Below, in pieces: positions 29,404 to 64,000 of a DNA stretch of 64,000 nucleotides. The position numbers were made by a program, and so were the translations under genes. Source of the DNA: an uncultured Actinomycetes bacterium (GTDB lineage Bacteria > Actinomycetota > Acidimicrobiia > Acidimicrobiales > Ilumatobacteraceae); NCBI GenBank assembly GCA_937927625.1, contig CALBSD010000097.1, positions 987 through 64,986 on the forward strand. The letters run 5' to 3'. The notes below the pieces were generated by a model, which saw only the letters and a program-made list of their open reading frames with translations, made no database searches and was not told the DNA's origin. Numbering within the stretch: position 1 is the stretch's first letter; each line of letters starts with the position of its first letter.

Positions 29404-31086
<1,683 letters not shown>

Positions 31087-36655: not shown

Positions 36656-36730
36656 TGGAGCCGGGTGTGGGGGTTGAACCCACGGCCTACGCATTACAAG
36701 TGCGTTGCTCTACCACTGAGCTAACCCGGC
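36656..36730 (-). tRNA. tRNA-Thr (anticodon TGT), CCA encoded
   Basis: The reverse complement reads GCCGGGTTAGCTCAGTGGTAGAGCAACGCACTTGTAATGCGTAGGCCGTGGGTTCAACCCCCACACCCGGCTCCA. Cloverleaf checked by hand: acceptor GCCGGGT/ACCCGGC, anticodon loop CTTGTAA, T-loop GGTTCAACC. Confidence 0.9.
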
Positions 36731-36743
36731 GAGGACTCTCAGC

Positions 36744-37811
36744 CTAGGCGCGTCCCGCCATTCGCACACGGGTGACTTCATAAGTTGCCAGCGCGGCGGC
36801 GGCCGAGACGTTGAGAGAGGAGACCTGCCCCAGCATCGGGATGCCCACGATGGTGTCGCAGCGGTCCTTCACAAGGCGGGACAAGCCCGTGCCTTCTGAA
36901 CCCAGAACGATGCAGATGCCATCGTTGGCCAACTTGCCGATGTCGAACAAGGTCTCGGTGCTGGAGTCGTCGAGACCGACCACCCAGATGCCCTTGTCCT
37001 TCATCTGCTGGATAGCGGTGGGAAGGCCCGACACGAGGGTCATCGGCACGTGCTCGACAGCGCCAGCGGCGGACTTTGCCACGGTGGGCGTGACATGCAC
37101 AGCGCGGTGCTTTGGCAATACGACACCGGTGACTCCGGCGCCATCACAGCAACGCAAGAGCGCGCCAAGGTTGCCCGGATCAGTCACGCCATCGACAGCC
37201 ACCAAGAACGGTGCAACGCCGTTGTGCGTCTTCAACATGTCTGCGAACGATGCTTCTTCTAATTGAGCAGCAAACGCGATGATGCCTTGCGGTGCTTCGC
37301 TTCGTGCAGTGTCTTCCAACGTGCGACGAGCAACTTCAAGAATTGGTACGCGATGTGCATGTGCAATTTGTTCGATGTCATCAAGGATTGGTGCTGCATC
37401 AATGTCAGATGCCATCCAGATTTCGCGAATCTTTCGCTTCTGACCAATCAACAATTCACGAACAGCCTGACGACCTTCGATTTGTTCGCCACCAAGACCC
37501 TTTGCAACGGGTGCGTTGCGACGTGGTGCTTCACCGCGTCGACCACCAGGAAGTGGTGCAGAGCGACGAGCCTTTGGACGAGGTGCATCATCACGTGAGA
37601 ACGATGCCGCACTGCGTGATGCACCACCGGCACCTGCGCCCTTGCTGCGCGAAACAACACCACGTGATGCTGCGGCACCACTTCGAGGTGATGCAGCCTT
37701 TGGTGCGGCCTTACTTCCGGCGCGGCTATTTGTGTTGCGTCCACCTGCAGGGCGACCTGGAGGCCCCAAGTTGACCTTTGCTTTGGGCTTGCTCGATTTG
37801 CGTGCGGCCAT
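36744..37811 (-). CDS. rlmB: 23S rRNA (guanosine-2'-O)-methyltransferase RlmB (SpoU/TrmH family) with basic Ala/Arg-rich N-terminus
   Basis: SpoU motifs VVGLDD, CIVLGSEGTGLSRLV, IPMLGQVSSLNVSAAAALATYE. ATG 37811 lies 2 nt after the ispF stop. Confidence 0.85.
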   Translation of the reverse strand: MAARKSSKPKAKVNLGPPGRPAGGRNTNSRAGSKAAPKAASPRSGAAASRGVVSRSKGAGAGGASRSAASFSRDDAPRPKARRSAPLPGGRRGEAPRRNAPVAKGLGGEQIEGRQAVRELLIGQKRKIREIWMASDIDAAPILDDIEQIAHAHRVPILEVARRTLEDTARSEAPQGIIAFAAQLEEASFADMLKTHNGVAPFLVAVDGVTDPGNLGALLRCCDGAGVTGVVLPKHRAVHVTPTVAKSAAGAVEHVPMTLVSGLPTAIQQMKDKGIWVVGLDDSSTETLFDIGKLANDGICIVLGSEGTGLSRLVKDRCDTIVGIPMLGQVSSLNVSAAAALATYEVTRVRMAGRA

Positions 37812-37813
37812 GA

Positions 37814-38302
37814 CTATGACTCCTTGATGATGACGGCTGATGCGAAGCAAGCGATTCCTTCGCTGCGTCCGATTGCCCCGAGACCTTCAGCGCGTCGTCC
37901 CTTGACAGAGACAGGTGCACCAGCGGCTTCGGAAAGCAGGCTCACCATTGTGTCGCGAGATGGAGCAATTCGTGGCGATTCGCACACAACACTGCAGTCA
38001 ACATTGCCAATTCTCCAGCCCTGGGCGGTCACTTTGGCTGCCACATCGCGCAAAATGGCCAATGAGTCGGCCCCCTTCCACGCAGGGTCGGTATCTGGAT
38101 AGTGCTGGCCAATGTCGCCAAGACCCGCAGCCCCCAGCAATGCATCGGCTGCGGCATGCGCAATCACGTCGGCATCGCTATGCCCGATCAGCACTGGCTC
38201 ACCGGGAAACTGCACGCCACCGAGGATGAGCACACGGCCTTCGATTGGTGCATCAGCAAACTTGTGAATATCGAAACCTTGTCCGACACGAACATCAATC
38301 AT
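37814..38302 (-). CDS. ispF: 2-C-methyl-D-erythritol 2,4-cyclodiphosphate synthase
   Basis: RVGQGFDIHKF...GHSDADVIAHAAADALLGAAGLGDIGQHYPDTDP is the canonical IspF pattern. The start overlaps the ispD stop (ATGA). Confidence 0.93.
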   Translation of the reverse strand: MIDVRVGQGFDIHKFADAPIEGRVLILGGVQFPGEPVLIGHSDADVIAHAAADALLGAAGLGDIGQHYPDTDPAWKGADSLAILRDVAAKVTAQGWRIGNVDCSVVCESPRIAPSRDTMVSLLSEAAGAPVSVKGRRAEGLGAIGRSEGIACFASAVIIKES

Positions 38303-44300: not shown

Positions 44301-44376
44301 TGGTGCGCCCTCTGGGGCTCGAACCCAGGACCTGCGGATTAAAAGTCCGTTGCTCTACCGACTGAGCTAAAGGCGC
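44301..44376 (-). tRNA. tRNA-Lys (anticodon TTT), CCA encoded
   Basis: The reverse complement reads GCGCCTTTAGCTCAGTCGGTAGAGCAACGGACTTTTAATCCGCAGGTCCTGGGTTCGAGCCCCAGAGGGCGCACCA. Acceptor GCGCCTT/AGGGCGC, anticodon loop CTTTTAA, T-loop GGTTCGAGC. The 27:43 A-C pair is a mismatch. Confidence 0.88.
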
Positions 44377-49167: not shown

Positions 49168-49353
49168 ATGAACCCCCTATCGACATTCTGCCACCTCTAG
49201 AAAGCAGCTCGGGACAACTGTGCGAACAGATGTACCCATTCCCTGGAATACATCACCCAGGTACCAAAGGTCATTTATTTCGAATGTTGTGAATTGCACA
49301 CTCCCTAGTACCAAGAGTCGCTTGTCGTGGCGCTCTTCGAGCAAGGAGTTCCC

Positions 49354-52059
49354 ATGCATAACACCGGACAACCACTGCACACTCGATTTCACAAGTCGGC
49401 TGCGTACTTTGCATCAGCAATTCTTCTCGCAGCAGTTCTCATTATGCGAGTGAACGAATCTACGACTAAAGCAATTGCGCTGAGTACAGGCATCATCAGT
49501 GCCAAAGTCAGTGATCATGTGGGCGTCGACAGTGTTGGTCATCCCGATGGCACGGGAACGTCGAATTGTGTTCGGTATCAGCCGACTTCAAGCGCAACAT
49601 CATCTGGATGGGTGACATCCACAAGTTCTCCGAATGAAGCGCAAACCGCGCACGGGCAATCAGGCTCTTCATGTCCATCATCTCTCGATATCAGTCAACA
49701 AAGTGCCGTCGGTATACGGCCTGCAGGGGCGGCAACTTTCACCAGTGGCACTCCCTTTCTTCTCGCCCGTGCAATTCACTACAACAATCCCATTCGTGGA
49801 GCAGCTGAATACTGGAATGGAAAGTTCACAATCCAGATGGCTGGCTTTGATGGTTCACCCCAAGTAGGGCTCAATTGGTGGATGTGGGAAACACCTAATA
49901 ATGCAAATCCTTGCGCCGGTGGCTCCGATTCCAATGGATGCTTTGATGAAATCAAATTCACGTCACAAATTGGTGATCAAATTGTGACGCAATCTGGTTA
50001 CGACTATCGCCTAGTTATTACAGGTTTCGTACCGGTCAGTTCATCTACGACATGTCCAAGCACTCCGAGTGGCGCAACGATTAATGACTTCTGGACACAT
50101 GAAGGCGCCACCACCCATGCATGCCTCTATGCAGCGTTATCTCAAGTCCGCAAGGTAGTCATCACAAAATCCATTGTGGGAAATGGAAACGGAGTTGATG
50201 CCCCTTCCGCACAATTTGATTTCACGACAACTGGAAACATTTCGGGCTCACCGTGGACAAACGGCTCATTCACACTTACTCCACCAACAAACGGCAATGC
50301 ATCAACTACAGCAAAGGAGATTGTTTCTACTGACACCATCTCTGTCACTGAAACATCTCCACCCAATAGCAATTGGTCACTAACAAACATTGCATGTACT
50401 GATTACGCCGCTAACGGCAATCCAAGGCCTTTGCCAAGTGGCGCTACCTATAACACGGCTACTCGTCGTCTGGAACTGACGCAAATTCCTGCACCACCGG
50501 ATGTCACACATCCAAACATCACATGCGTGTTCCAAAATACATACACACCACATGCGACGCTTACATTGGTCAAGCATGTAACTGGCGGAAATGCAGCAAT
50601 CTCCGATTTCACGTTGACAGCTACTGGCGCAGATGTTGCACCAACTGCCGACCACACCATCTCCGGAACAAGCGGCCATCAAAATGTCACGTCTCGAAGT
50701 GTCCCCGCAGGCGCATACACACTCAGTGAAAATGGCCCTTCTGGATATGTCTCAAATCAAGGATGGTCTTGCCCTGGCGCCTCGATTGTTGACAATGTGG
50801 TGACCTTGGTTGATGGCGCAAATATCACATGCACCATCACAAATCGATTTCAATCCGGCAGCCTTCGCATCAATGTAGTGATTTCAGCTCCACCAGGATC
50901 TGTCACGGCTCCGGGTCGAAACTTCACCGGCACCTACACATGCGGGGCAGATCCTGTTGCACCATTCACCGCGACAGAGTCGTCACCATTTGGTGCGGCA
51001 AATCTTCCCTCGGGAACTTCCTGCTCGGTCGTTGCAACACAACCGACAGGGGACCTTGCTAACGCATCATTTGCGTGGGCAACACCCACATATTCGACAC
51101 AACCTGTCGTCATCGGTGACGAGACCGAGTCAACGATCACTGTGACCTATCGCGTGATTCAGCGCTTCGGTTCATTCAGCGTGACGAAATCAATCTCTGA
51201 CCAGAGTGGATATACCGGTGCAGCAGGACGAATCTTCCCGATCAACTACTCCTGCCGTATTGGTGAAGACGTTGTAGCAAACGGAACACTCAACGCAATC
51301 GCCGGAGTGGCCATCTCTCCAGAGGAACAAATTCCGGCAACTGCAACATGCCAGCTTGCTGAAACTCTGAACCTTTTGGAAGGAGATTTTGTGGACAGTT
51401 CTTACGAATGGAACACACCACTCTTCAGCGATGCAACGCCGGTGATACCTGCTGATCAAGTTCTCAATATCAGCGTGACCAATCGATTTAACCGAATCTT
51501 TGGATCCTTGCTCATAAGCAAAACTCTGTCTGGCTCTACAATTGGTTTTGTAGAAGGTACAAAGTTCAACTTCACAGTCTCCTGTGGTGAGGTGTTTAAC
51601 ACGACAGTCATTGCAGGAATTGGTGAACCAGCGACAACAGCAAACATCCCGCGCGGCACCCAATGCACTGTGGCTGAAGTGGCACCAACAGGCGGCCTCA
51701 GCACTACTGAGTATTCGTGGGGTCCGACCCCTTCCCCTCAGGGCGTGACAGTGGAGCGGTTGAACCAACCAGTGGTCTTCAACAACAGCATCACCTTTGT
51801 GGCAAGCACAACCACTTCCACCACCCTGCCTGCGACAACGACTACCGTTCCCGCGACAACGACCACAGTTCCAGGCACGACAACCACCGTCGCACCAACC
51901 ACAACAACGACCATTCCTACCGAGTTAGATGTTCTTGTTCCCGATGAATTACAAGTACTCCCCGCAACTGGTCATACATCGAATGGTGCCCTATTCGCAG
52001 GAATTCTGATGATTCTTATCGGAGGAATCTTTATCCTTCGCAAGAGGATCGTTCGATAA
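49354..52059 (+). CDS. LPXTG-anchored surface protein: unknown N-terminal domain, prealbumin-like (SpaA-type) domain, three DUF5979-like domains, Thr/Pro stalk
   Basis: ATG 49354 is preceded by AGGAG at 5-nt spacing. Signal-peptide-like N-terminus (KSAAYFASAILLAAVLIM). Three GS(L/F)x(I/V)xK...C...C...W...(T)NRF units. (TTTTVP)n linker. C-terminus LPATG plus a hydrophobic helix plus RKRIVR. Confidence 0.85.
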   Translation: MHNTGQPLHTRFHKSAAYFASAILLAAVLIMRVNESTTKAIALSTGIISAKVSDHVGVDSVGHPDGTGTSNCVRYQPTSSATSSGWVTSTSSPNEAQTAHGQSGSSCPSSLDISQQSAVGIRPAGAATFTSGTPFLLARAIHYNNPIRGAAEYWNGKFTIQMAGFDGSPQVGLNWWMWETPNNANPCAGGSDSNGCFDEIKFTSQIGDQIVTQSGYDYRLVITGFVPVSSSTTCPSTPSGATINDFWTHEGATTHACLYAALSQVRKVVITKSIVGNGNGVDAPSAQFDFTTTGNISGSPWTNGSFTLTPPTNGNASTTAKEIVSTDTISVTETSPPNSNWSLTNIACTDYAANGNPRPLPSGATYNTATRRLELTQIPAPPDVTHPNITCVFQNTYTPHATLTLVKHVTGGNAAISDFTLTATGADVAPTADHTISGTSGHQNVTSRSVPAGAYTLSENGPSGYVSNQGWSCPGASIVDNVVTLVDGANITCTITNRFQSGSLRINVVISAPPGSVTAPGRNFTGTYTCGADPVAPFTATESSPFGAANLPSGTSCSVVATQPTGDLANASFAWATPTYSTQPVVIGDETESTITVTYRVIQRFGSFSVTKSISDQSGYTGAAGRIFPINYSCRIGEDVVANGTLNAIAGVAISPEEQIPATATCQLAETLNLLEGDFVDSSYEWNTPLFSDATPVIPADQVLNISVTNRFNRIFGSLLISKTLSGSTIGFVEGTKFNFTVSCGEVFNTTVIAGIGEPATTANIPRGTQCTVAEVAPTGGLSTTEYSWGPTPSPQGVTVERLNQPVVFNNSITFVASTTTSTTLPATTTTVPATTTTVPGTTTTVAPTTTTTIPTELDVLVPDELQVLPATGHTSNGALFAGILMILIGGIFILRKRIVR
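51958..51972 (+). other. Sortase recognition motif LPATG of the 901-aa surface protein
   Basis: The codons ctc ccc gca act ggt are in frame with ATG 49354, followed by HTSNGALFAGILMILIGGIFIL and RKRIVR. Confidence 0.85.
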
Positions 52060-52062
52060 AGA

Positions 52063-55000
52063 CTAGGCGCGACGCTGTACCAGGCGCTTACTGCGATTCA
52101 CCGCAACGCCGATGCCAATCATCATGAGCGCTGCAAGTAGCAGTGGCTCGGTGTTGTTGGCACCTGTCATGGGCAACTGTGGCTTTGCAGGGATGATCGG
52201 AGTGAGCTTTGACTGCACTGTTTGACCAGCAACGTCTGTCACTTGGTAGGTGATGGACAAGCCCTTACCGGTCTTCGCATTGCGGCTGGCGGTGAAGGTC
52301 ACAACACCTGTTGTCTTGTTCAACTTGAAACGTCCAAGATGAGGAACAACCACAATGCCATCGGCATCACACACTGATACATCAGCTGCGACAACCGGAG
52401 CCGGATCAATCAAACAGGTCACGGACTTATTGAGACCGAGCTTTGAAGTAGCCAGGCCTTGATTGCCAGTGATGGTGGTGAACTGTACGGTCTCGCCACG
52501 ATTCACTTCAAGAGTCTGTGGCTTTGCAACTGGCATCGACGGTGGTGGTGCAACGACAACGGTGATGGTTGCCATGGCAACTTGACCAGCGCCATCTGCA
52601 ACGGAGTACTTAATGGCTGTTGCATTCCCCCAGAAGGTTGGAAGCGGCACGAAACGAACGCTGCCATTGGCCTGAACGAGATAAGTGCCTTCACCAGGAA
52701 CAGTCAGTGATGTGAGAGAACATGACGACGGAACAGTTGTTGAGGCATCGCACAACTTGAGAGTGTTGCCAATGAGGGAGGTACCAGTTCCGGCAACATC
52801 ATTCGTGAGAGGACTGATTGTTTGCGCAGTATTCCATGGACCCGTTGATGTGTCATTCACAATCGTTGGCATTGGAGGAATGACTGGCGTCAGAGTCGAT
52901 GCCACTGTCTGACCGAAGATGTCAGTGATCTGATACGTAACTGAGGTGCGATGGCCAATCGGGGCATTAGCCAGCGAGGTGTAGGACACCACCCCGGTGA
53001 GTACATCGATTCTGTATGTTCCTTCGCCAGCGATGGTCACATCGGTGACGCCACACACGTTTGTAGATGGGTCGACGATGCAGAAGCTAGTTGGGTTGAG
53101 GGCAGCTCCGCCCGCAGCAGAAGCAGCAAGTGCTCCAGAGCCCACGATGGGCAAGAAGGTTACGGTTGACGCAGGAGCAAGCGCACGAAGATCAGGCGTC
53201 GCCACTGGAGGTGGCGGCATTGACACTGTTGGTGTGATGGTTGCACTGGCAACGCGACCATTGATGTCTGCCACCACATATTTCACAGGCGATGCTGTAC
53301 CCACAAAAGTTGGCAACGGATCAAATGTCACAGTGCCATTTGCATTCACTGTGTAGGTGCCCTCATTTGACACCGTCAATGTCGTGAGGTTGCACGATGC
53401 ATTAGCAGTTGAAGTTGTTGCACACAGCTTCACACTGCTTGGCACCAAGGTTGCAGGAGCAACTGCAGAGTCATTTGTCAGTGGCGAGATCACCTGATTC
53501 GTATCAAATGGCCCTGTGTTGGTGTCATTGACGGCTGTTGGAGGCGCAGGGATGATCGGCGTGAGGGTCGAAATAGCTGTCTGGCCAAAGATGTCGGTGA
53601 CTCGGTACGACAGTGGCGTCTTAGTTCCAGCCGCAGCATTGCCGTCCGCAACGAATGTGACTACACCTGTCGATGAGTTCAGGGTGTACGTGCCTTCACC
53701 AGCGATTGTGACAACACCATCAGCATCGCAATTGGTTGTACCAGGCGTCAGGAGACATGTTGCTGAGGTATTGAATCCAACCGTCGAAGTTGCGAGACCA
53801 CTTGCACCAGTCAAAGTCGTGAAGTTCACGGTTCCACCTGGAATCACTGTCTTCGTTTGTGGTGTTGCAACTGGGACGGGAGGTAATCCAACTGTAGGCG
53901 TGATGGTGGCATTTGCCAGCTGACCAGTGCTGTCAGCAACGATGTACTTCACCGGTGATGCAGTACCCGTAAATGTTGGTAATGGATCAAAGGTGACCGT
54001 GCCATTTGCATTCACTGTGTAGGTGCCTTGGCCAGCAACGGTCAACGTTGTGAGGTTGCAGGAGGCATTTGCAGTAGAGGTGGACGCGCATAACTTCACG
54101 CTGCTTGCAATCAACGTTGCTGGATTTGCAGCAGAGTCATTGGGCAGAATCGAGATTGTTTGATTCGTGTCAAATGCGCCGCTGGAGGTGTCATTTGTTG
54201 CAACCGGAGGTGCAGGAATAATCGGAGTAAGGGTTGCAGTATCAGTCTGCCCAAAGACATCTGTTACTTGATACGTCAATGCAGTCTTTGTGCCTTGCGT
54301 GGCATTCACATCGGCCACAAATGTGACAACACCAGTTGCTGTATTCAGCGTGTATGTGCCTTCACCAGCAATCGTGACAACACCATCTGCATCACACGTA
54401 GAAGTTCCTGGCGTGATCAGACACGTGGCAGAGGTGTTGAACCCCACTGTCGATGTTGCCAGTCCACTGACGCCAGTCAAAGTTGTGAAGTTCACGCTGC
54501 CTCCAGGAATCACAGCCTTCGTCTGTGGATTCGCAAATGGGGCCGCTGGCATCAACACTGTTGGGGTAATGAGGGCATTTGTGATCTGACCAGTGGAGTC
54601 AGAAACGATGTACTTCACCGGTGATGCGGTACCAGTAAACGTTGGAAGAGGATTGAACGTCACTGTGCCATCTGAGTTGACCGTGTACGTACCTTCGTTT
54701 GGAACTGTCAGTGTCGTGAGGTTGCAGCTTGCGTTCGCTGTCGAGGTCGTTGCACACAACTTCACCGAGCTTGCAACCAACGTGGCAGGGGAAGTAACAG
54801 AATCATTCGCGAGAATCGAAATGACCTGATTTGTGTCGTACGGACCAGTGGACGTGTCATCTGTAGCGGCTGGTGGTACTGGGATGATCGGCGTCAACGT
54901 TGAAGTTGCAGTCTGACCAGTGATATCCGTGACGACATACGTAATCGGAGTCTTCGTACCAGATGTCGCATTCGCATCGGCTACGTAGGTGACAACACCC

Positions 55001-58000
55001 GTTGATGGGTTGAGTGTGTACGTGCCTTCACCAGGAATAGTGATGACTCCATCAGCATCACAAGTAGTGGTGTTGGGTGTGTAGAGGCATGTTGCTGCTG
55101 TATTGAATCCAACGCTTGACGTTGCAAGTCCACTAGCACCAGTAAGTGTCGTGAAAGTCGCAGTTGCGCCAGGGATGACAGCCTTTGACTGCGGAGTCGC
55201 AGTTGGTGCTGCAGGTGCTGACACCGTCGGCGTAATCGTGGCATTCGTGATCTGACCAGTGCTGTCAGCCACGATGTACTTCACCGGCGATGCAGTGCCA
55301 GTGAACGTTGACAATGGATCGAATGTGACGGTGCCGTTCGCATTGACCGTATACGTACCCTGGTTTGCAACCGTCAGCGTTGTGAGATTGCAACTTGCAT
55401 TTACTGTTGAAGTTGTGGCGCATAACTTGACCGTGCTTGCAATCAACGTCGCAGGCGAGGTCGCAGAGTCGTTTGTCAAAATCGAAATGACCTGATTTGT
55501 GTCATAGGCGCCAGTAGACGTATCGTTTGCGCCAACAGGAGGAGCCGGGATAACCGGCGTCAATGTAGACGTTGCTGTCTGGCCGAAGGTGTCGGTCACA
55601 CGGTATGAAAGTGGTGTCTTTGTTCCTTGTGTCGCATTGATATCGGCAACAAAAGTGACAACACCAGTTGAAGTGTTCAGCGTGTACGTGCCTTCACCTG
55701 CGATTGTCACTACCCCATCAGCATCACAGGTAGTGGTGCTAGGTGTGAGAAGACATGTCGAAGCATTCACGAGCCCGACGCCTGAAGTTGCAAGACCACC
55801 TGTTCCCGTCAAGGTTGTAAATGTGGCGGTTCCACCAGGGATGACAGCTTTCGACTCTGGCGTTGCAACTGGTGCAGCAGGCATCGAGACAGTCGGTGTG
55901 ATGGTGGCGCCGGTGAATTGACCAGTGGAATCTTGCACTGCGTACTTCACAGGTGAAGCAGTACCAGTGAATGTTGGAAGAGGATCAAATGTGACTGTGC
56001 CGTTCGGGTTGACCGTATATGTGCCCTGGTTTGCAATTGTCAATGTTGTGAGGTTGCAGCTTGTGCTAGCCGTAGCAGTCGTTGCACACAACTTCACGGT
56101 GCTCGCATTCAATGTCGCAGGAGAAGTAACTGAGTCATTGGTCAAGATTGAGATGGTTTGATTCGTGTCATATGCGCCAGTTGAAGTGTCATTCGTTGCA
56201 ACTGGTGGTGCTGGAATGACTGGCGTCAGAGTTGACGTCGCTGTCTGACCAGTGATGTCCGTGACGCGATATGTCAATGGTGTCTTAGTACCTGCAGTGG
56301 CATTGACATCCGCAACGAAGGTGACGACACCAGTAGTTGGGTTCAATGTGTAGGTGCCTTCACCTGCGATTGTCACTACCCCATCAGCATCACAGGTAGT
56401 GGTGCTCGGTGTGAGAAGACACGTCGAAGTATTTACGAGTCCGACACCTGAAGTGGCAAGTGCACCCGTACCGGTCAGTGTGGTGAACGTCGCAGTAGCA
56501 CCAGGGATGACAGCCTTCGTTTCTGGGGTCGCTACTGGAGCGGCAGGCGGGGTGACAGTCGGGGTCAGGGTCGCGGAGGTGAGCTGAGTAGTGCTGTCGG
56601 CAACGACATACTTCACAGGTGATGCTGTGCCCTTGAATGTTGGCAACGGATCAAATGTGATTGTTCCGTTTGCATTGACCGTGTAGGTGCCTTCGTTCGG
56701 AACCGTCAAGGTTGTGAGATTGCAGCTTGTGTTTGCTGTACCGGTCGTTGCGCACAATTTCACTGTGGTCGCATTCAACGTTGCGCCTGCACCTGGGTTG
56801 TCGTTTGTCAGAACGGAGATTGTCTGATTTGTGTCGTAGGCTCCTGTCGAAGTGTCGTTCGCTGCGACAGGAGCCAACGAAAGAATTGGTGTCAGTGTCG
56901 ATGTTGCTGTTTGACCGAAGGTGTCTGTGACCTTGTATGTAATTGCTGTCTTTGTTCCCGATGTTGCATTTGCATCGGCCACATACGTCACGACTCCGGT
57001 CGATTGGTTCAAGGTGTACGTACCTTCACCAGCAATCGTGACAACTCCGTCTGCATCACATGTAGTGGTGTTTGGCGTGTAGAGACACGTCACTGTCGTA
57101 TTAAAGCCAACACCTGAGGTTGCGAGTCCATTTGTCCCCGTCAAAGTGGTGAATGTTGCAGTTCCACCAGCAATCAGTGTTTTCTGGTCTGGTGTTGCAG
57201 TTGGTGCAGCAGGCATCGCCACTGTTGGGGTAATCGTTGCTCCTGTTAGTTGACCATTGCTATCCGCCACCACATACTTCACAGGCGAAGCTGTTCCCGT
57301 AAAGGTTGACAACGGATCAAAGGTCACTGTTCCATTCGCATTGACCGTGTAGGTGCCCTGGTTGGCCACTGTCAACGTTGTGAGATTACAACTGGCGTTC
57401 GCAGTTGCAGTTGTTGCACACAACTTCACCGAACTACCAACCAGCGTGGCAGGTGATGTCACGGTGTCGTTCGACAAAATAGTGATGGTTTGATTCGTGT
57501 CATACGCACCACTGGAAGTGTCGTTCGTTGCTACAGGTGCAGGCGGAATCAAGGGTGTCAACGTTGAAGTTGTGGATTGACCGGTTGCGTCAACGACCTT
57601 GTACGTAATTGCAGTCTTTGTACCAACTGTGGCAGCAGGGTCTGCGACGTATGTGACAACGCCAGTCGACTGATTTAACGTGTACGTACCTTGACCAGCG
57701 ATAGTCACGATGCCATCAGCATCACAAGTAGTAGTGCTTGGGGTGTAAAGACACGTTGCCATCGTGTTGAAACCAGCAGTCGCAGTGGCAAGGCCACCAG
57801 TGCCTGTCACTGTCGTAAACGTTGCAGTTCCGCCAGGAATCACAGTCTTTGTCTCAGGTGTTGCAACAGGAACAGGAGGCGCCGTCACAGTAGGCGTGAT
57901 ATTCGCACCAGCAAGCTGGCCGGTGGAATCTGCCACCACATACTTCACTGGGGTTGCGGTCCCCTTAAATGATGGCAGCGGATCAAACGACACCGTGCCA

Positions 58001-61000
58001 TCAGCATTGACCGTGTACGTACCCTCATTCGCAACCGTCAACGTTGTGAGATTACAAGAAGCATTCGCAGTCGCAGTCGTTGCGCACAACTTCACAGAAC
58101 TTGCAACCAATGTTGCACCAGTGCCCGGCGTGTCATTGGCTGTCACAGAAATGGTCTGCACTGTGTCCCATGCGCCAGTCGAAGTGTTCGCCGTTGCACT
58201 TGGCGCAGGAGGCACAATCGGAGTCAACGTTGACGTAACCGACTGACCAAAGATGTCCACAACCTTGTACGTAATTGCAGTCTTTGTTCCAGGGGTCGCC
58301 GTGGAAAGAGCCACGTAAGTGACGATGCCTGTCGTTGAATCAAGCGTGTATGTGCCTTGACCAGCGACGGTCACGATGCCATCGGCATCACAGGTACTTG
58401 TGCCAGGTGTATAGAGACACGTTGCCACGGTGTTGAAACCAGGTCCCGAAGTTGCGAGTCCGCCGGTCCCAGTCGTCGTCGTAAATGTCGCAGTTCCGCC
58501 AGGAATCACTTGCTTCGTTTCTGGAGAAGCAACAGGGATTGGGGGAAGTGAAACCGTGGGAGTAATCGTTGCTCCAGCGATCTGACCATTGGAGTCTGTG
58601 ACTGCGTACTTCACCGCAGATGCAGTGCCAGAGAAGGTAGGCAACGGATCAAACGTGACCGTGCCGTTGGCATTGACTGTGTAAGTTCCCTGGTTCGCAA
58701 CTGTCAATGTTGTGAGATTGCAACTTGCATTAGCGGTGGAAGTAGTTGCGCACAGCTTCACGCTGGAGGCAACAAGAGTTGCTGGCGCTGTGGCCGAATC
58801 ATTAGTGAGAATTGTGATGGTCTGGTTGGTATCCCATGCACCTGTTGATGTGTCGTTGACTGCCACGGGAGCAGGAGGGATTGTTGGCGTCAATGTTGAC
58901 GTAGCAGTTTGTCCAAAAGTGTCAGTCACACGGTACGTAATCGCTGTCTTGGTGCCGGCAGTCGCTGCAGGATCTGCAACGTAGGTGACAATGCCAGTAG
59001 AAGCATTCAGCGTGTACGTGCCTTGACCGGCAATCGTGACAATTCCGTCAGCGTCACATGTTGCTGGCGATGACGCTGGTGTGATCAGACATGTCGAAGC
59101 CGCAACAAGTCCAACACCTGAAGTGGCAAGACCACCTGTGCCAGTAATGGTGGTGAACGTTGCGGTTCCACCGGGGATGACAAGTTTGGTTTCCGGAGTT
59201 GCCACAGGAGCCGCAGGCATTGCAACGGTCGGAGTAATCGTTGCGCTCGTCACTTGAGTGGTGGAATCAGCAACGATGTACTTCACTGGAGATGCGTTTC
59301 CTGTGAATGTTGACAGTGGGTCGAACGTGACAGTGCCATTGGCATTCACTGTGTACGTACCCTCATTGGCAACTGTCAACGTTGTGAGATTGCAACTTGC
59401 ATTCGCGGTAGCGGTGGTCGCACACAACTTCACGCTCGTTGCATCGAGAGTTGCACCAGCCCCAGCAGCGTCGTTGGTCAATGGAGAAATCGTCTGATTC
59501 GTGTCATACGCACCAGAGGACGTGTCATTCGTGGCAGTCGGTGCGGGCGAGACAATCGGAGTCAATGTTGAAGTTGCAGTTTGTCCGGTGATGTCCGTGA
59601 CCTGATAGGTCAATGCGGTCTTGGTACCGGGCGTGATATTCGAGACTGAAACAAAAGTGACAACTCCTGTTGAAGTATTCAACGTGTAAGTGCCTTCGTT
59701 GGCAATCGTGACAACACCGTCGGAATCACAAGTAGCCGGGACTGAACCAGGAGTAATAAGACATGTTGATGCTGTATTAAATCCTGCAGCCGAAGTTGCT
59801 AGGCCATTCGTTCCAGTCAATGTGGTGAACGTTGCGGTCGCACCGGGAATCAATGTCTTCGTTTGTGCCGTAGCTACAGGGGCAGACGGTGCAACCACCG
59901 TTGGCGTAATGGTTGCGGAAGTGGCCTGCTGAATTCCATCCTGCACCACATATTGAATTGGCGTTGCAGTTCCACGGAAAGTTGGCAACGGGTCAAATGT
60001 GACAACGCCGTTCGCGTTGACGGTGTACGTGCCCTCATTCGGAATTGTCAGCGTTGTCCCTGTGCAAGATGCAATAACTGTTCCCGTTGTACAGATACGG
60101 ACTGTGCTTGGGTCAATTGGCGAGAGTGTTCCAGAAATATCATTCGTCAAAGGCGAAATGATTTGGTTCGTGTCATATGAACCGCTTGAAGTGTCATTGA
60201 TCGCAACCGGCGAAGTTGTTGTTACAGATGGCGTATACGTACTCGTTCCAATGTTTCCATTCACATCGGCAACTTGGTAACTCAACGGTGTTGCAGTTCC
60301 CGTAAAAGTACTCAGCGGAGTAAACGTGACAACACCCGTATTGCTGACGGTGTAGGTGCCTTGATTCGGGACTACAACGGATCCGCCGGGCCCCACGGTG
60401 CAGTTTGGCGCCACTTGATTTGTTGCCGGATTACACAACTTGACGGATGCAGGGTCCAATGCCACGGTCGTGCCGGCCGCATTCATCGCATTCGTATCGT
60501 TGGTAACGACATTGATGGATTGTGGTGTGTTGACAGGACCGACTGTCGCATCAGGGAATGCAGTTGGCTTGGGAGTGCTATGGCACATTGCGCCATCCGT
60601 TGGAACTGTTGGAACCTGGTACATCAAGGTAAATGCCGAACTTGCTGACGCAGTTGCTGGTGTCGATGTGCGGAAATACTGACGGTACCCATCAGTCACA
60701 ATGACTTCACCAAAACCATCTGCGTAGATCGCGCCACCCGCTGCATAGTTCGAAGGCATGATTGACCGAGATGTAGATACCCATGAATAGTCAGGCGCTG
60801 CATCCTGGGTCGCCATGTACAAAGCAGAACCAGATGATGAATAGATCTTGCCGGCCGAATACGCAAGGTCATCTCCTGTCATTGCAACGCTGACTGTCAC
60901 CGTTGTTGCGACTCGACTCGAGAGATTGATGGAGTACAAGGTCGTAGTCGAGCCAGTCTTTTTGACAATCAGATTTCCCGTCGCATCAACGTCGCCACCC

Positions 61001-64000
61001 TTTATCGCTGTCATGTCTGCGACTGTGACACCAGAAATGGCACCGAGGTCAGTCGGCGTTCCATTGCTTCCAATTCGAATGAGATCGCCAGCCGTCAGTC
61101 CATCCCCGCCTGTTGTTGCGATGCCATACAGATATCCATCTGATTGATTGAAGCCAATCGCGTCAATCACTGCAGTTGTCAATTTCGGACCAATCTCATA
61201 TGACAATGCTGGGTTCTGAGTTGGACTGAGGCGATACAGCTGGCCGCCTGTGTAGTGGTACATGTAGGCATTGCAGACAAAAGAGCCAGCATTTGCTGGC
61301 GTCGTCGCAACGAGCACATCTTGCGTGTTCTTGGTGAATCCTGTTGTCACCACATTGCCCGCACCATTTGTGTACGTACCCGCAGCTGTAGCAACAACAG
61401 CGACGCTGTATTCACATGTGGCAACACCCGCTGTCATTGACGCACCGGTAACGGTCACAGAGTTCGTCATTGTTGACATTGCTGCTGGATCAATGGTCGG
61501 GTTGTAGCCAGCGCGAACCCCGTCAGGGCACGTCGTCATCAAGTTGTTATTTGCTGCAACTTCAAGACCAGACGGGAGCGTGTCGACAAACCCCAAGCCA
61601 GTCTTTGCAGTATTACCCGGAGCATTCGTGAATGTAAATGTCAACGTGGCCACTTCACCCACAGCAACAGTTGCTGGAACGAATTTCTTTGTCAATGTCG
61701 GCATCACGGTGTATTCACCATCAATGACACCAGTTGTACCTATTGCGATAGTGCTGACTTTTGAAAGAAGAGATGTGATTGCCGTCGTTGTTTCAGTAGT
61801 AGTTCTGTTTGCGAGTGTCGCGGTATTTCCAGCGGTCACAACGGTTTTTGTAACTGCTGCCGTTGATACGTCATTGAACTTCACTGTGTAATCACCAGGT
61901 GAAAGATTGGGGAACGAATATGTTCCGTTTGCCCCAGTGACAGTCGTAATTGGCTGACCACGCATTGAAGAGTTTCCATACGTATCGGGATACGTCAATG
62001 GATTACCTGCGGAGTCACACAAGGTCACAGTCGCACCTGAAATTGCATTGGATGCAGTGTCTCTTGCTGTGCCCGACAAACTCGTTGAACACAACAACGG
62101 ATCAGCTGCACCAATGTTCACTGTTGCCGTTGCTCGGGTCAACGGAGTGACAGTCGAACCATCAGTTGCGCTTCCGTCTGCAGTCACTGTTGTTGTCGTT
62201 GCATTGAACTGCGAGCCAGTGAAGGTTGGTCCGGCAGGACAAAGAATTGCAGTGGGACGCAAGCAAAGTTGAGGGGCACCACCAACAGCAGTAATGCGAG
62301 CTCCTACTTCACCATTGAGTGTTCGGCCAGTAAAAGACACCGTGAATGAAGGGTTTTGTCCAGAGTCTCCGATCGCCAGTGATGATAAATCAACTGTGTT
62401 ATTCCCCGGAATCGAGATATTTGTCCATCCGGTAATGGCAGATCCTGCAGCAGTCTTCACTGTCAATGTTGCGGTTGTAAACGGAGTAGTCGTGTTAAGA
62501 ACAAACGAACGCCACCCTTGAATTGCATCAGCTGATGAACACGCCATTCGGGGCACAAGTAGCCCTGCCTCAAAAACGACTGTTGGTGGCGGTACTGCAC
62601 AGTTACCTGCCGCACCTGTGTAAGCGTCATAGGTCTGAATGATTCCGTCGTTAGAGTTTGACCAGATGCAATATGCATTCGTTGGGTCAATTCTCAATTG
62701 ATAGTTGGTATCGGGAATTCCAGTAGCTGCCCAGTTCTTACACCAAGTATCTGTTGCAAAGTCCCAGCAATAAATCTTTCCTTGACCAACTGCCCAGTTG
62801 CCATCTCCCCAATACATTCGGGTTCCCGACGTATCCCAGTTCTGCGTGTACGCGTCATAACTAGCGACATAGGTTGCGATGTACTTCGTCGTGAAGTTTG
62901 TTGTCAATGAACTTGAGATATCAGTTCCGGCGGCATTGAAACATTGGAAGAAGCCACCATTTGCGCCAGCACCCAATGCAGAGAAGCATGCACCTGCAAC
63001 TCCACCTTGCGCAGTCGGGAGTTTTGACCAGTGAACTGCGGCTTTAGTAATAGTGCGAGGGTTCGACCAACCAGTACAAGCGTTTCCAGTCATCGCATCA
63101 ATGCACACTGCCTTTGTTGCGACACCAGCGCTCGCGTAAATACGACCGCCCCATTCACCCACTGTTGGACGCCAACGGTAAACACCTGATTTTGCAGTGA
63201 GAAGGTTCGCGCCAAAATCAATGATACCGCCGGTGCTACATGGAGCACCCGCACCACTATTCAAACGAATATCGACACAAACGAGGTCACCTGTATTGAC
63301 TGCCCACGTGAAAAGTCGACCGTTGTACTGCGCAAAACCACCGCTGCAGTCATAGATCTGACCGGACTGCCCACAGGCATAACCTGAGGAAGGAACATTG
63401 GTCGAAGATCCACCCGATACGAACGAGGAATCTGCAGTTCCACCGCACCACTTATTCGTGAGCGAGATGTCTCCCGCCTTGATGCAACCGAATCCAACTT
63501 GATTGACTCCGTTATACGTGTAAACCGTTGGAAACCAAATCTCATCATCAACAGTGTCAAACCAACCCGTTGATTGCTCGTTTGAGTGCATGTTGAACAG
63601 TGGTGCTGTTGTCAGAGATTCAATTTTGAATGGCCACGAAGGTCCACACGTTTCACCGGTACGTAAATGGCAGTCAATACTTTGATTACTTGAGCCCACA
63701 TTCGATCCGCCTGAACCGTTGTGGTGCCAGATGTTGAAGATGTGACCCGCATCATCAAAGAACACGTCCCAACCATCTCCACTGGATCCGGTCGTTGTTG
63801 GAAATTGACCTGTGGTGGGTTGGGCTGCATTTGCATCGGTTGATGCAATTTGTCGTCCAATGTTGTCTGCACCTTGGCTGACGAGTTGACCTCTTGCCTT
63901 CACTTTGATGATTGCGTTCCAGCCAGCAGTAGTGGTGGGCGCAGTTGTAGTCCACGTTGTTCCATCAGTTGAATACGAAATTGTCCAACCAGCTGGAGCA
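52063..64000 (-). CDS. Giant LPXTG-anchored mosaic adhesin-like surface protein (5'-partial; more than 3,978 codons in the window)
   Basis: The frame is open from the stop at 52063-52065 to the window edge. I checked codons 63904-63999 by hand and found no stop. The GTG 63903 in the track is only the first start-like codon. C-terminus LPMTG plus a TM helix plus RSKRLVQRRA. Contains 25 tandem Ig-like modules and several adhesin-type domains (see findings). Confidence 0.9.
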   Translation of the reverse strand, partial: APAGWTISYSTDGTTWTTTAPTTTAGWNAIIKVKARGQLVSQGADNIGRQIASTDANAAQPTTGQFPTTTGSSGDGWDVFFDDAGHIFNIWHHNGSGGSNVGSSNQSIDCHLRTGETCGPSWPFKIESLTTAPLFNMHSNEQSTGWFDTVDDEIWFPTVYTYNGVNQVGFGCIKAGDISLTNKWCGGTADSSFVSGGSSTNVPSSGYACGQSGQIYDCSGGFAQYNGRLFTWAVNTGDLVCVDIRLNSGAGAPCSTGGIIDFGANLLTAKSGVYRWRPTVGEWGGRIYASAGVATKAVCIDAMTGNACTGWSNPRTITKAAVHWSKLPTAQGGVAGACFSALGAGANGGFFQCFNAAGTDISSSLTTNFTTKYIATYVASYDAYTQNWDTSGTRMYWGDGNWAVGQGKIYCWDFATDTWCKNWAATGIPDTNYQLRIDPTNAYCIWSNSNDGIIQTYDAYTGAAGNCAVPPPTVVFEAGLLVPRMACSSADAIQGWRSFVLNTTTPFTTATLTVKTAAGSAITGWTNISIPGNNTVDLSSLAIGDSGQNPSFTVSFTGRTLNGEVGARITAVGGAPQLCLRPTAILCPAGPTFTGSQFNATTTTVTADGSATDGSTVTPLTRATATVNIGAADPLLCSTSLSGTARDTASNAISGATVTLCDSAGNPLTYPDTYGNSSMRGQPITTVTGANGTYSFPNLSPGDYTVKFNDVSTAAVTKTVVTAGNTATLANRTTTETTTAITSLLSKVSTIAIGTTGVIDGEYTVMPTLTKKFVPATVAVGEVATLTFTFTNAPGNTAKTGLGFVDTLPSGLEVAANNNLMTTCPDGVRAGYNPTIDPAAMSTMTNSVTVTGASMTAGVATCEYSVAVVATAAGTYTNGAGNVVTTGFTKNTQDVLVATTPANAGSFVCNAYMYHYTGGQLYRLSPTQNPALSYEIGPKLTTAVIDAIGFNQSDGYLYGIATTGGDGLTAGDLIRIGSNGTPTDLGAISGVTVADMTAIKGGDVDATGNLIVKKTGSTTTLYSINLSSRVATTVTVSVAMTGDDLAYSAGKIYSSSGSALYMATQDAAPDYSWVSTSRSIMPSNYAAGGAIYADGFGEVIVTDGYRQYFRTSTPATASASSAFTLMYQVPTVPTDGAMCHSTPKPTAFPDATVGPVNTPQSINVVTNDTNAMNAAGTTVALDPASVKLCNPATNQVAPNCTVGPGGSVVVPNQGTYTVSNTGVVTFTPLSTFTGTATPLSYQVADVNGNIGTSTYTPSVTTTSPVAINDTSSGSYDTNQIISPLTNDISGTLSPIDPSTVRICTTGTVIASCTGTTLTIPNEGTYTVNANGVVTFDPLPTFRGTATPIQYVVQDGIQQATSATITPTVVAPSAPVATAQTKTLIPGATATFTTLTGTNGLATSAAGFNTASTCLITPGSVPATCDSDGVVTIANEGTYTLNTSTGVVTFVSVSNITPGTKTALTYQVTDITGQTATSTLTPIVSPAPTATNDTSSGAYDTNQTISPLTNDAAGAGATLDATSVKLCATTATANASCNLTTLTVANEGTYTVNANGTVTFDPLSTFTGNASPVKYIVADSTTQVTSATITPTVAMPAAPVATPETKLVIPGGTATFTTITGTGGLATSGVGLVAASTCLITPASSPATCDADGIVTIAGQGTYTLNASTGIVTYVADPAATAGTKTAITYRVTDTFGQTATSTLTPTIPPAPVAVNDTSTGAWDTNQTITILTNDSATAPATLVASSVKLCATTSTANASCNLTTLTVANQGTYTVNANGTVTFDPLPTFSGTASAVKYAVTDSNGQIAGATITPTVSLPPIPVASPETKQVIPGGTATFTTTTGTGGLATSGPGFNTVATCLYTPGTSTCDADGIVTVAGQGTYTLDSTTGIVTYVALSTATPGTKTAITYKVVDIFGQSVTSTLTPIVPPAPSATANTSTGAWDTVQTISVTANDTPGTGATLVASSVKLCATTATANASCNLTTLTVANEGTYTVNADGTVSFDPLPSFKGTATPVKYVVADSTGQLAGANITPTVTAPPVPVATPETKTVIPGGTATFTTVTGTGGLATATAGFNTMATCLYTPSTTTCDADGIVTIAGQGTYTLNQSTGVVTYVADPAATVGTKTAITYKVVDATGQSTTSTLTPLIPPAPVATNDTSSGAYDTNQTITILSNDTVTSPATLVGSSVKLCATTATANASCNLTTLTVANQGTYTVNANGTVTFDPLSTFTGTASPVKYVVADSNGQLTGATITPTVAMPAAPTATPDQKTLIAGGTATFTTLTGTNGLATSGVGFNTTVTCLYTPNTTTCDADGVVTIAGEGTYTLNQSTGVVTYVADANATSGTKTAITYKVTDTFGQTATSTLTPILSLAPVAANDTSTGAYDTNQTISVLTNDNPGAGATLNATTVKLCATTGTANTSCNLTTLTVPNEGTYTVNANGTITFDPLPTFKGTASPVKYVVADSTTQLTSATLTPTVTPPAAPVATPETKAVIPGATATFTTLTGTGALATSGVGLVNTSTCLLTPSTTTCDADGVVTIAGEGTYTLNPTTGVVTFVADVNATAGTKTPLTYRVTDITGQTATSTLTPVIPAPPVATNDTSTGAYDTNQTISILTNDSVTSPATLNASTVKLCATTATASTSCNLTTLTIANQGTYTVNPNGTVTFDPLPTFTGTASPVKYAVQDSTGQFTGATITPTVSMPAAPVATPESKAVIPGGTATFTTLTGTGGLATSGVGLVNASTCLLTPSTTTCDADGVVTIAGEGTYTLNTSTGVVTFVADINATQGTKTPLSYRVTDTFGQTATSTLTPVIPAPPVGANDTSTGAYDTNQVISILTNDSATSPATLIASTVKLCATTSTVNASCNLTTLTVANQGTYTVNANGTVTFDPLSTFTGTASPVKYIVADSTGQITNATITPTVSAPAAPTATPQSKAVIPGATATFTTLTGASGLATSSVGFNTAATCLYTPNTTTCDADGVITIPGEGTYTLNPSTGVVTYVADANATSGTKTPITYVVTDITGQTATSTLTPIIPVPPAATDDTSTGPYDTNQVISILANDSVTSPATLVASSVKLCATTSTANASCNLTTLTVPNEGTYTVNSDGTVTFNPLPTFTGTASPVKYIVSDSTGQITNALITPTVLMPAAPFANPQTKAVIPGGSVNFTTLTGVSGLATSTVGFNTSATCLITPGTSTCDADGVVTIAGEGTYTLNTATGVVTFVADVNATQGTKTALTYQVTDVFGQTDTATLTPIIPAPPVATNDTSSGAFDTNQTISILPNDSAANPATLIASSVKLCASTSTANASCNLTTLTVAGQGTYTVNANGTVTFDPLPTFTGTASPVKYIVADSTGQLANATITPTVGLPPVPVATPQTKTVIPGGTVNFTTLTGASGLATSTVGFNTSATCLLTPGTTNCDADGVVTIAGEGTYTLNSSTGVVTFVADGNAAAGTKTPLSYRVTDIFGQTAISTLTPIIPAPPTAVNDTNTGPFDTNQVISPLTNDSAVAPATLVPSSVKLCATTSTANASCNLTTLTVSNEGTYTVNANGTVTFDPLPTFVGTASPVKYVVADINGRVASATITPTVSMPPPPVATPDLRALAPASTVTFLPIVGSGALAASAAGGAALNPTSFCIVDPSTNVCGVTDVTIAGEGTYRIDVLTGVVSYTSLANAPIGHRTSVTYQITDIFGQTVASTLTPVIPPMPTIVNDTSTGPWNTAQTISPLTNDVAGTGTSLIGNTLKLCDASTTVPSSCSLTSLTVPGEGTYLVQANGSVRFVPLPTFWGNATAIKYSVADGAGQVAMATITVVVAPPPSMPVAKPQTLEVNRGETVQFTTITGNQGLATSKLGLNKSVTCLIDPAPVVAADVSVCDADGIVVVPHLGRFKLNKTTGVVTFTASRNAKTGKGLSITYQVTDVAGQTVQSKLTPIIPAKPQLPMTGANNTEPLLLAALMMIGIGVAVNRSKRLVQRRA
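52162..52176 (-). other. Sortase recognition motif LPMTG of the giant protein
   Basis: The reverse complement of acc tgt cat ggg caa reads ttg ccc atg aca ggt, followed by ANNTEPLLLAALMMIGIGVAV and NRSKRLVQRRA. Confidence 0.85.
52180..60560 (-). repeat. Intragenic tandem array: 25 modules of about 111 aa (about 333 bp) of two alternating types, 666-bp di-module period
   Basis: Module boundaries were read from the translation (order A-A-(B-A)x11-B). The DNA periodicity shows in by-product antisense ORFs starting at 54593, 55259 and 55925. Array boundaries are approximate to about 30 nt. Confidence 0.85.

Follow-up and report, generated by a model that had tools for sequence, protein, structure and literature searches.

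The minus strand of a 64,000-nucleotide stretch of actinobacterial DNA (hereafter the window; contig CALBSD010000097.1) encodes a giant surface protein that contains 25 tandem CshA_repeat domains at 52180-60546. These domains belong to two subtypes, A and B, arranged in the order A-A-(B-A)x11-B (13 A and 12 B modules). The array is very likely the stalk of a sortase-anchored, fibrillar-adhesin-like protein, in which an old alternation of two subtypes arose through duplication of a two-module unit and the copies have been kept alike by selection at the protein level. As judged from the coding sequence, the likeness of the modules reflects purifying selection on old copies rather than ongoing homogenisation of their DNA. 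An initial annotation, made from the letters alone, had placed the array at 52180-60560 without stating its strand, had given the same order and module counts, and had assigned the modules to the CshA-type immunoglobulin (Ig)-like family. Its span agrees with the module coordinates within 14 nucleotides, its order is confirmed by typing of the modules, and its family assignment is borne out by the profile and structural matches described below. Its further proposal, that concerted evolution is homogenising the centre of the array while the diverged ends are copies that escaped, is contradicted by the DNA and by the relatives of the gene.

The two-subtype array

The open reading frame (ORF) of the giant protein is listed at 52063..63903, and no stop interrupts the frame before the window ends at base 64000, so that it spans 11.9 kb and encodes at least 3,978 residues within the window. 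A non-repeat part of about 1,120 residues, built of other domain types, precedes the 25 stalk domains. The gene, its stalk and its anchor are laid out as follows:

52063..64000, minus strand: coding sequence of the giant surface protein, from the ORF listing and its translation, with the N-terminus beyond the window end
59881..60546, minus strand: modules M01A and M02A, a diverged A-type pair adjoining the head, positional orthologues of modules 1-2 in relatives
53209..59880, minus strand: central array M03B-M22A, ten B-A pairs of 666 nucleotides each, with within-type identity of 67-90% in amino acids and 65-80% in nucleotides
52180..53208, minus strand: M23B, M24A and M25B, specialised modules next to the wall
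52063..52179, minus strand: predicted sortase sorting signal, with LPMTG (52162-52176), a hydrophobic span, the basic tail RSKRLVQRRA and the stop codon (52063-52065), from translation and motif scan

Searches with the whole protein returned 25 stretches of the repeat both with Pfam CshA_repeat PF19076 (829.9 bits, cutoff 27) and with NCBIfam TIGR04225 (971.5 bits, cutoff 60). Scored singly against PF19076, an A module reaches 63.1 bits and a B module 35.0 bits, the latter covering profile positions 28-102. The core G-T-Y-T-[VL] occurs 25 times in the array at a spacing of 109-118 residues, mostly 111; modules were cut at the G-T-Y-T core and numbered from M01A (60220-60546) through M25B (52180-52536).

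Central A modules (M04-M22) are 68-85% identical to one another in amino acid sequence and central B modules (M03-M21) 67-90%, while identity between A and B is 20-38% in a multiple alignment and 0.39 in pairwise alignment. Along the array, amino acid identity averages 0.39 between adjacent modules (lag 1) and rises to 0.72 between modules two places apart (lag 2). The DNA has a period of 666 nucleotides: identity at that lag is 0.59, compared with 0.34 at lag 333 and values near 0.30 at the remaining in-frame lags. Tandem Repeats Finder reported no repeat in the array, since it handles periods of at most 500 and A and B differ too much from each other. The modules at the two ends resemble their own type less closely (M01A 42-48%, M02A 56-65%, M23B 45-54%, M24A 48-57% and M25B 49-56% amino acid identity), a divergence that had been noted correctly at the outset, as had the identity of about 85% between modules 14 and 16 (M14A and M16A, 85% in amino acids).

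The C-terminus of the protein, LPMTGANNTEPLLLAALMMIGIGVAVNRSKRLVQRRA, contains an LPXTG motif, a hydrophobic span and a positively charged tail, and the orthologues have LPTTG, LPVTG or LPSTG at their ends, with a tail of similar kind behind it. By its sequence, this arrangement of LPMTG, hydrophobic span and basic tail is a sortase sorting signal.

M25B, the module next to this signal, is the sole basic module of the array, with a net charge of +5 and an isoelectric point of 9.5, the other 24 being acidic (-2 to -5); its charge would fit a position beside the cell wall. It also carries a 6-8-residue insertion between its two cysteines and is 80-88% conserved in orthologues. The plus-strand GC skew switches to +0.10 to +0.12 exactly across the array (52001-60000), which fits a coding strand rich in Thr, Ala and Pro (22.5% Thr) rather than a replication feature.

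Divergence of the copies and the unit of copy-number change

Modules of the same type share 65-80% of their nucleotides, less than they share of their amino acids. Comparison at the DNA level recovers the 666-nucleotide period that had been proposed, but not a homogenised centre. Synonymous divergence (pS, Nei-Gojobori) between central modules is 0.69 for A and 0.67 for B, near saturation; over same-type modules it ranges from 0.55 to 0.82, the lowest value belonging to the closest pair, M13B and M15B. The ratio of nonsynonymous to synonymous divergence (dN/dS) of the central modules is about 0.1. Where central modules agree in residue at a column, they also agree in codon 43% of the time, the chance level derived from codon usage in the array being 35%. 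Recent unequal crossing-over or conversion would be expected to leave long identical tracts of DNA, and none are present: only one exact match between modules exceeds 29 nucleotides, a stretch of 53 shared by M13B and M15B. The near-saturated synonymous sites therefore argue against any recent homogenisation, and these counts together strongly disfavour concerted evolution at the centre. Selection for codon scrambling was also considered and is ruled out, since use of the same codon lies above chance and not below it.

A search with the head yielded metagenomic actinobacterial proteins 46-57% identical to the head, whose arrays likewise open A-A-B-A-B. A profile of the B-A pair matched 5,329 proteins in a representative library, and the modules of the library proteins were typed with our own A and B profiles. 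Strict alternation is found in P0014 (complete, 2,970 residues, 15 modules), P0015, P0019, P0020, P0028 and others. Elsewhere in the family B is sporadic, in patterns such as AAAB, or occurs as BB or in B-only arrays, and most arrays consist of A only; by lag analysis, a period of two modules is also common among CshA-repeat arrays made of other subtypes. Alternation of A and B is therefore recurrent in the family and not unique to the window gene. Among alternating orthologues the array has 15 modules in P0014, 25 in the window, at least 29 in L005 and at least 30 in L002, the last two being contigs of metagenome-assembled genomes (MAGs), located with an alignment of heads, with longer alternating arrays than that of the window. 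No strain-level relatives of the window gene were recovered: exact-sequence look-ups of two window proteins gave no hit, and the best match of the C-terminal 494 residues is 81% identical.

The end modules have clear counterparts in these relatives. M01A is 61% identical to module 1 of L002 and of P0001, and module 2 of these two relatives matches M02A at 66-69% identity. In a comparison set of P0014, P0020, P0283 and P0284, identities to positional orthologues were as follows:

M03B: 81%
M04A: 83%
M22A: 86-88%
M23B: 74-79%
M24A: 63-68%
M25B: 80-88%

The central modules have no clear positional partners in these four proteins. Set against P0014 and P0283, M23B, M24A and M25B reach 79%, 68% and 85-88% identity to their counterparts. 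Because the ends are conserved as positional orthologues, they are specialised modules, maintained since before these lineages split, rather than copies that escaped homogenisation. The stalk is also more conserved than the head: against P0014, positional orthologues of stalk modules are 79-88% identical and the head 51%. In P0014's own DNA (L001), paralogous modules differ at pS 0.46-0.78, and window modules differ from their P0014 positional orthologues at pS 0.54-0.80.

The unit in which these arrays change length is the A+B pair. The pattern of similarity among the A modules is correlated with that among the B modules (Mantel r 0.38-0.47, p 0.01-0.03), and orthologous alternating arrays differ by whole A+B pairs. 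The clearest case is that of L002 and L005, whose modules, once one stalk is shifted by two places, pair off at 87-100% nucleotide identity, L005 lacking exactly one 666-nucleotide unit relative to L002. At the junction, module 3B of L005 is chimeric: its 5' part corresponds to 3B of L002 and its 3' part to 5B (71 informative sites, maximum chi-square 22.1, permutation p 1e-4). Unequal homologous recombination between a pair of B modules would be expected to yield just such a sequence. All remaining modules of the two stalks are in strict positional orthology with no homogenisation. In this family, unequal recombination does operate on the A+B unit, though only on rare occasions, and alters the length of the array without homogenising it. 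The A+B dimodule that had been put forward as the unit of expansion thus stands, as does unequal recombination on the 666-bp unit, but not its role as a homogenising force.

The stalk DNA of L002 (7472-21257) and L005 (1754-15493) is 93.6% identical over 8.7 kb; the MAGs are registered as representatives of different species. Their upstream flank and leader are 87% identical, while the intervening heads are 36-68% identical in protein, so that the locus looks like a mosaic, as though heads or stalks had been exchanged by recombination.

These observations suggest the following model. The alternation would have come from old duplications of a two-module unit, giving a super-repeat in which two subtypes of a single fold take turns: A, the canonical CshA repeat, and B, with a replaced N-terminal third and a TG-GGLATS loop. 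Purifying selection on the protein would keep the copies alike while their DNA drifted to about 70% identity. Rare unequal recombination would add or remove whole A+B units, with the alternation kept because only every second module is homologous. The end modules would be separately conserved and specialised, one set forming the junction with the head and the other ending in the basic wall-proximal module. Alternation would also hold neighbouring domains below about 40% identity, a regime thought to limit inter-domain misfolding, from which the stalk might benefit.

Predicted structure and alternative explanations

An AlphaFold2 model of M10A-M11B-M12A, built with 11 window fragments as alignment, has a predicted local distance difference test score (pLDDT) of 88 and a predicted template modelling score (pTM) of 0.65. 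It is all-beta, with 7-8 strands per 111-residue module at matching positions in A and B, and with Pro-rich linkers of 8-10 residues that lack secondary structure. Its Foldseek matches are rods of tandem Ig-like and cadherin-like domains, and the module sequence matches CshA chain 6szc. By model and profile, A and B share one fold, and B is a divergent subtype of the CshA repeat, its N-terminal third having moved off the profile. Modelling of A-B-A thus supports two complete beta-sandwiches of a single fold, at a pTM of only 0.65. The TG-GGLATS stretch of B (residues 25-34, e.g. in M11B within 56878-57210) is among the best-conserved parts of B in three species, yet nowhere else in the model does pLDDT fall below 50.

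Every module contains exactly two cysteines, 9-11 positions apart (15 in M25B). Among 1,762 modules from 162 related proteins, 964 have no cysteine, 745 have two, 46 have four and 7 have an odd number, so that the count is even in 1,755 (99.6%). Such a both-or-neither pattern is what a disulfide predicts, and each domain probably holds one disulfide closing a 9-10-residue loop. The two cysteines and single disulfide per domain suggested by the initial annotation are thus supported, while the spacing of 10-14 residues given there needs slight correction. Exported proteins of aerobic Actinobacteria are biased towards even numbers of cysteines, and those of Firmicutes exclude cysteine (PMC2823432).

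The part of the protein ahead of the stalk comprises the following:

62104..64000, minus strand: N-terminal head, made up of residues 1-600 of the ORF as listed and of the open part upstream of it; rich in Cys, Trp and Gly, beta-propeller-like by prediction
61813..62082, minus strand: prealbumin-like domain (CarboxypepD_reg / SdrD_B-like), residues 608-697 (Pfam PF13620, 2.8e-09; PF17210, 3.9e-06)
61321..61701, minus strand: DUF7933 (DUF11-like) domain, residues 735-861 (Pfam PF25564, 1.1e-20)
60583..61245, minus strand: DUF6923 repeat region, residues 887-1107, directly ahead of the stalk (Pfam PF21959, 1.5e-23)

Residues 1-600 gave no Pfam match and no PDB sequence match at E <= 0.1. The AlphaFold2 model of the head (pLDDT 73.7, pTM 0.67) is matched by Foldseek to beta-propellers, among them BtuG (target template modelling score, TMt, 0.52) and sialidase, WD40 and NHL proteins. 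The head is thus predicted, with moderate confidence, to be beta-propeller-like, and is presumed to be the ligand-binding tip of the protein. The visible part at 60547-63903 contains 25 cysteines, 17 of them in invariant columns of an alignment of the first 600 residues, which suggests a heavily disulfide-bonded propeller-like tip. The whole would consist of a propeller-like head and three accessory domains atop 25 Ig-like domains of CshA type with short Pro-rich linkers between them, a rod of about 100 nm if extended at about 4 nm per domain.

A centre that is currently being homogenised, with the 666-bp unit as the substrate of unequal crossing-over or gene conversion and with the ends escaping, would explain why the centre is more alike than the ends, why identity falls weakly with distance along the array (r -0.16 to -0.44), why the closest pair, M13B and M15B, shares its 53-nucleotide match, and why the central modules of the window cluster together and not with those of L002 or L005; moreover, recombination on such a unit is documented in those two relatives. 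We nevertheless regard it as very improbable, given a pS of 0.67-0.69 in the centre and 0.55 even in its closest pair, nucleotide identity below that of the protein, and codon sharing barely over chance. The best paralogue of a central module is ahead of the best module of another species (P0014, P0020) by only 1-9 points, the close arrays L002 and L005 keep strict positional orthology, and the end modules, 68-88% identical to their positional orthologues, are constrained. It is scarcely credible that the array is an artefact of metagenome assembly or annotation, with repeats collapsed or mis-joined. The source is evidently metagenome-assembled, and long repeats are a known assembly hazard (PMC9704523), but these modules differ by 20-35% in DNA and so can be placed by short reads, the reading frame runs uninterrupted for 11.9 kb and has its anchor signal, and the architecture recurs, with module numbers from 15 to at least 30, in assemblies made independently from other lakes.

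The structural reading of the alternation, in which A and B are obligate partners that meet in a specific interface, like G5-E of SasG/Aap, and the dimodule is the folding and mechanical unit, is unlikely in our view. Such a pair would account for strict alternation across 23 modules, kept in orthologues, and for co-variation at the protein level in the B-then-A register (r 0.38-0.45) and not in the A-then-B register (r 0.10); linker pLDDT is likewise higher for B-to-A (about 90) than for A-to-B (about 79), and the conserved, low-confidence TG-GGLATS loop is what a loop requiring a partner might look like. Yet A and B are each predicted to be a complete beta-sandwich of the same family, their linkers are Pro-rich and unstructured, the pTM of the joint model is only 0.65, and relatives use B in AAAB, BB and B-only arrays and A alone in most. 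A different idea, which we find rather doubtful, is that the alternation is adaptive and not a frozen accident, avoiding misfolding between neighbours and, in combination with synonymous divergence, restricting recombination to rare, register-preserving events, so that a stable stalk serves as a platform for exchanged, fast-evolving heads. The stalks of L002 and L005, 93.6% identical in DNA below heads about 50% identical in protein, give a hint of this. If true, a stably inherited long stalk would be the opposite strategy to that of periscope proteins.

An old, selectively maintained two-subtype stalk on a sortase-anchored adhesin remains the reading that we prefer, and several points weigh against it. 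In the comparison with L002 and L005, 19 of the 20 central window modules have their nearest neighbour within the window, and some lineage-specific duplication or slow conversion may have taken place in the centre. The duplications and the species split are both old, and synonymous sites are too saturated to show which came first. CshA arrays with 94-97% identical neighbours exist, and they weaken the misfolding argument because they show that alternation is not required for the function of the fold. The secretion leader lies outside the window, a basic-then-hydrophobic leader being visible only in the orthologues P0014, P0002 and P0005, and a simple motif scan found no sortase gene within the window. 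Pfam and PDB sequence searches gave no characterised homologue of the head of this putative adhesin.

Comparison with known stalks, and genomic setting

The CshA-repeat family, the head-stalk-anchor plan and CshA-like stalks in Actinobacteria have been described (PMC10952558, PMC8286594), while we found no description in the literature of A/B alternation in CshA-type stalks. The system is not new in kind, but is a counter-example to the periscope proteins of the same domain family. CshA of Streptococcus gordonii, an LPxTG-anchored fibrillar adhesin of 17 CshA repeat domains, shares the repeat family PF19076/TIGR04225 with the window protein, and likewise has a non-repeat N-terminal head, then a long stalk of tandem domains and finally a sortase signal (PMC10952558). 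Unlike it, the window protein has an unrelated propeller-like head with DUF7933 and DUF6923, cysteine pairs, alternating subtypes and a freshwater actinobacterial host. No CshA non-repeat (NR1/NR2) head was found, Pfam at E <= 1 giving only DUF6923, DUF7933 and CarboxypepD_reg, from libraries in which the presence of an NR2 model was not verified.

Periscope proteins are built of near-identical DNA repeats and vary in length, and CshA_repeat is listed among their folds (PMC8201768, PMC9704523). Rib, SasG, Sgo_0707 and streptococcal CshA resemble the window protein in being single-chain rods that lift a head from a wall anchor. In contrast to them, the window array has DNA identities of 65-80%, saturated synonymous sites and neighbours about 30-39% identical, and arrays of its type differ in length only between deeply diverged lineages, apart from the single-unit event between L002 and L005. 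Membership of the periscope class is ruled out by the low DNA identity (65-80%, pS 0.55-0.82). Other members of the family, P0103, P0116 and P0156, have CshA-repeat arrays of 11-26 modules with neighbours 94-97% identical; these look periscope-like, so that both strategies would seem to occur within one domain family.

Two alternating module types and the gain or loss of a two-module unit are shared with the G5-E stalks of SasG/Aap. The SasG units are near-identical in DNA, and E is the shorter module and folds only together with G5. Unlike these, A and B of the window are two full-size variants of one fold with diverged DNA. The G5/E repeats of SasG are listed in PMC8201768.

Adjacent domains of large proteins are usually less than 50% identical, which has been proposed to limit misfolding (PMC8201768, PMC9704523; Wright et al. 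2005 for the low-identity rule, as cited in PMC9704523). The Ig/Fn3 super-repeats of titin follow a similar pattern to the window stalk, neighbours being far less alike than domains one super-repeat apart (0.39 versus 0.72 in the window), and titin I-band fragments are among the Foldseek matches of the A-B-A model; unlike titin, the window stalk is bacterial, extracellular and sortase-anchored, with putative disulfide-bearing domains. The best Foldseek match of A-B-A is the tandem Ig-like rod of an Aeromonas RTX adhesin extender (6xi1), Marinomonas MpIBP being another such adhesin, and the N-terminal ND...ND of A resembles acidic motifs of bacterial cadherin-like and Big_9 domains in Pfam matches. 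RTX adhesins, by comparison, are Gram-negative and type I secreted, with near-identical repeats rigidified by calcium, and are 18-19% identical to the window A-B-A.

The window array thus offers a clean natural case of a very long bacterial stalk, of at least 25 domains, that obeys the low-neighbour-identity rule by means of two subtypes. It also illustrates that likeness of repeats at the protein level can mimic homogenisation, so that claims about repeat arrays need a check at synonymous sites. For freshwater Ilumatobacteraceae-like actinobacteria, it points to a large and conserved investment in a surface fibril.

The host itself is placed among such actinobacteria by sequence comparison, GroEL of the window being 96-98% identical to GroEL of freshwater Ilumatobacteraceae MAGs. 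Other features of the window include:

17289-19568: GlnD
29404-31026: GroEL
36659-36730 and 44304-44376, minus strand: two tRNA genes
36744-37850: RlmB

The presence of GroEL, GlnD, RlmB and two tRNA genes identifies the window as ordinary chromosome. A second cell-wall-anchored protein of 910 residues is encoded at 49327-52059 on the plus strand, convergent with the giant gene, the two stop codons lying 3 nucleotides apart. Its prealbumin domains are SpaA-like, DUF5979 is represented by four stretches, and its LPATG precedes a membrane span and a basic tail; its gene contains a 21-nucleotide tandem repeat at 51832-51872.

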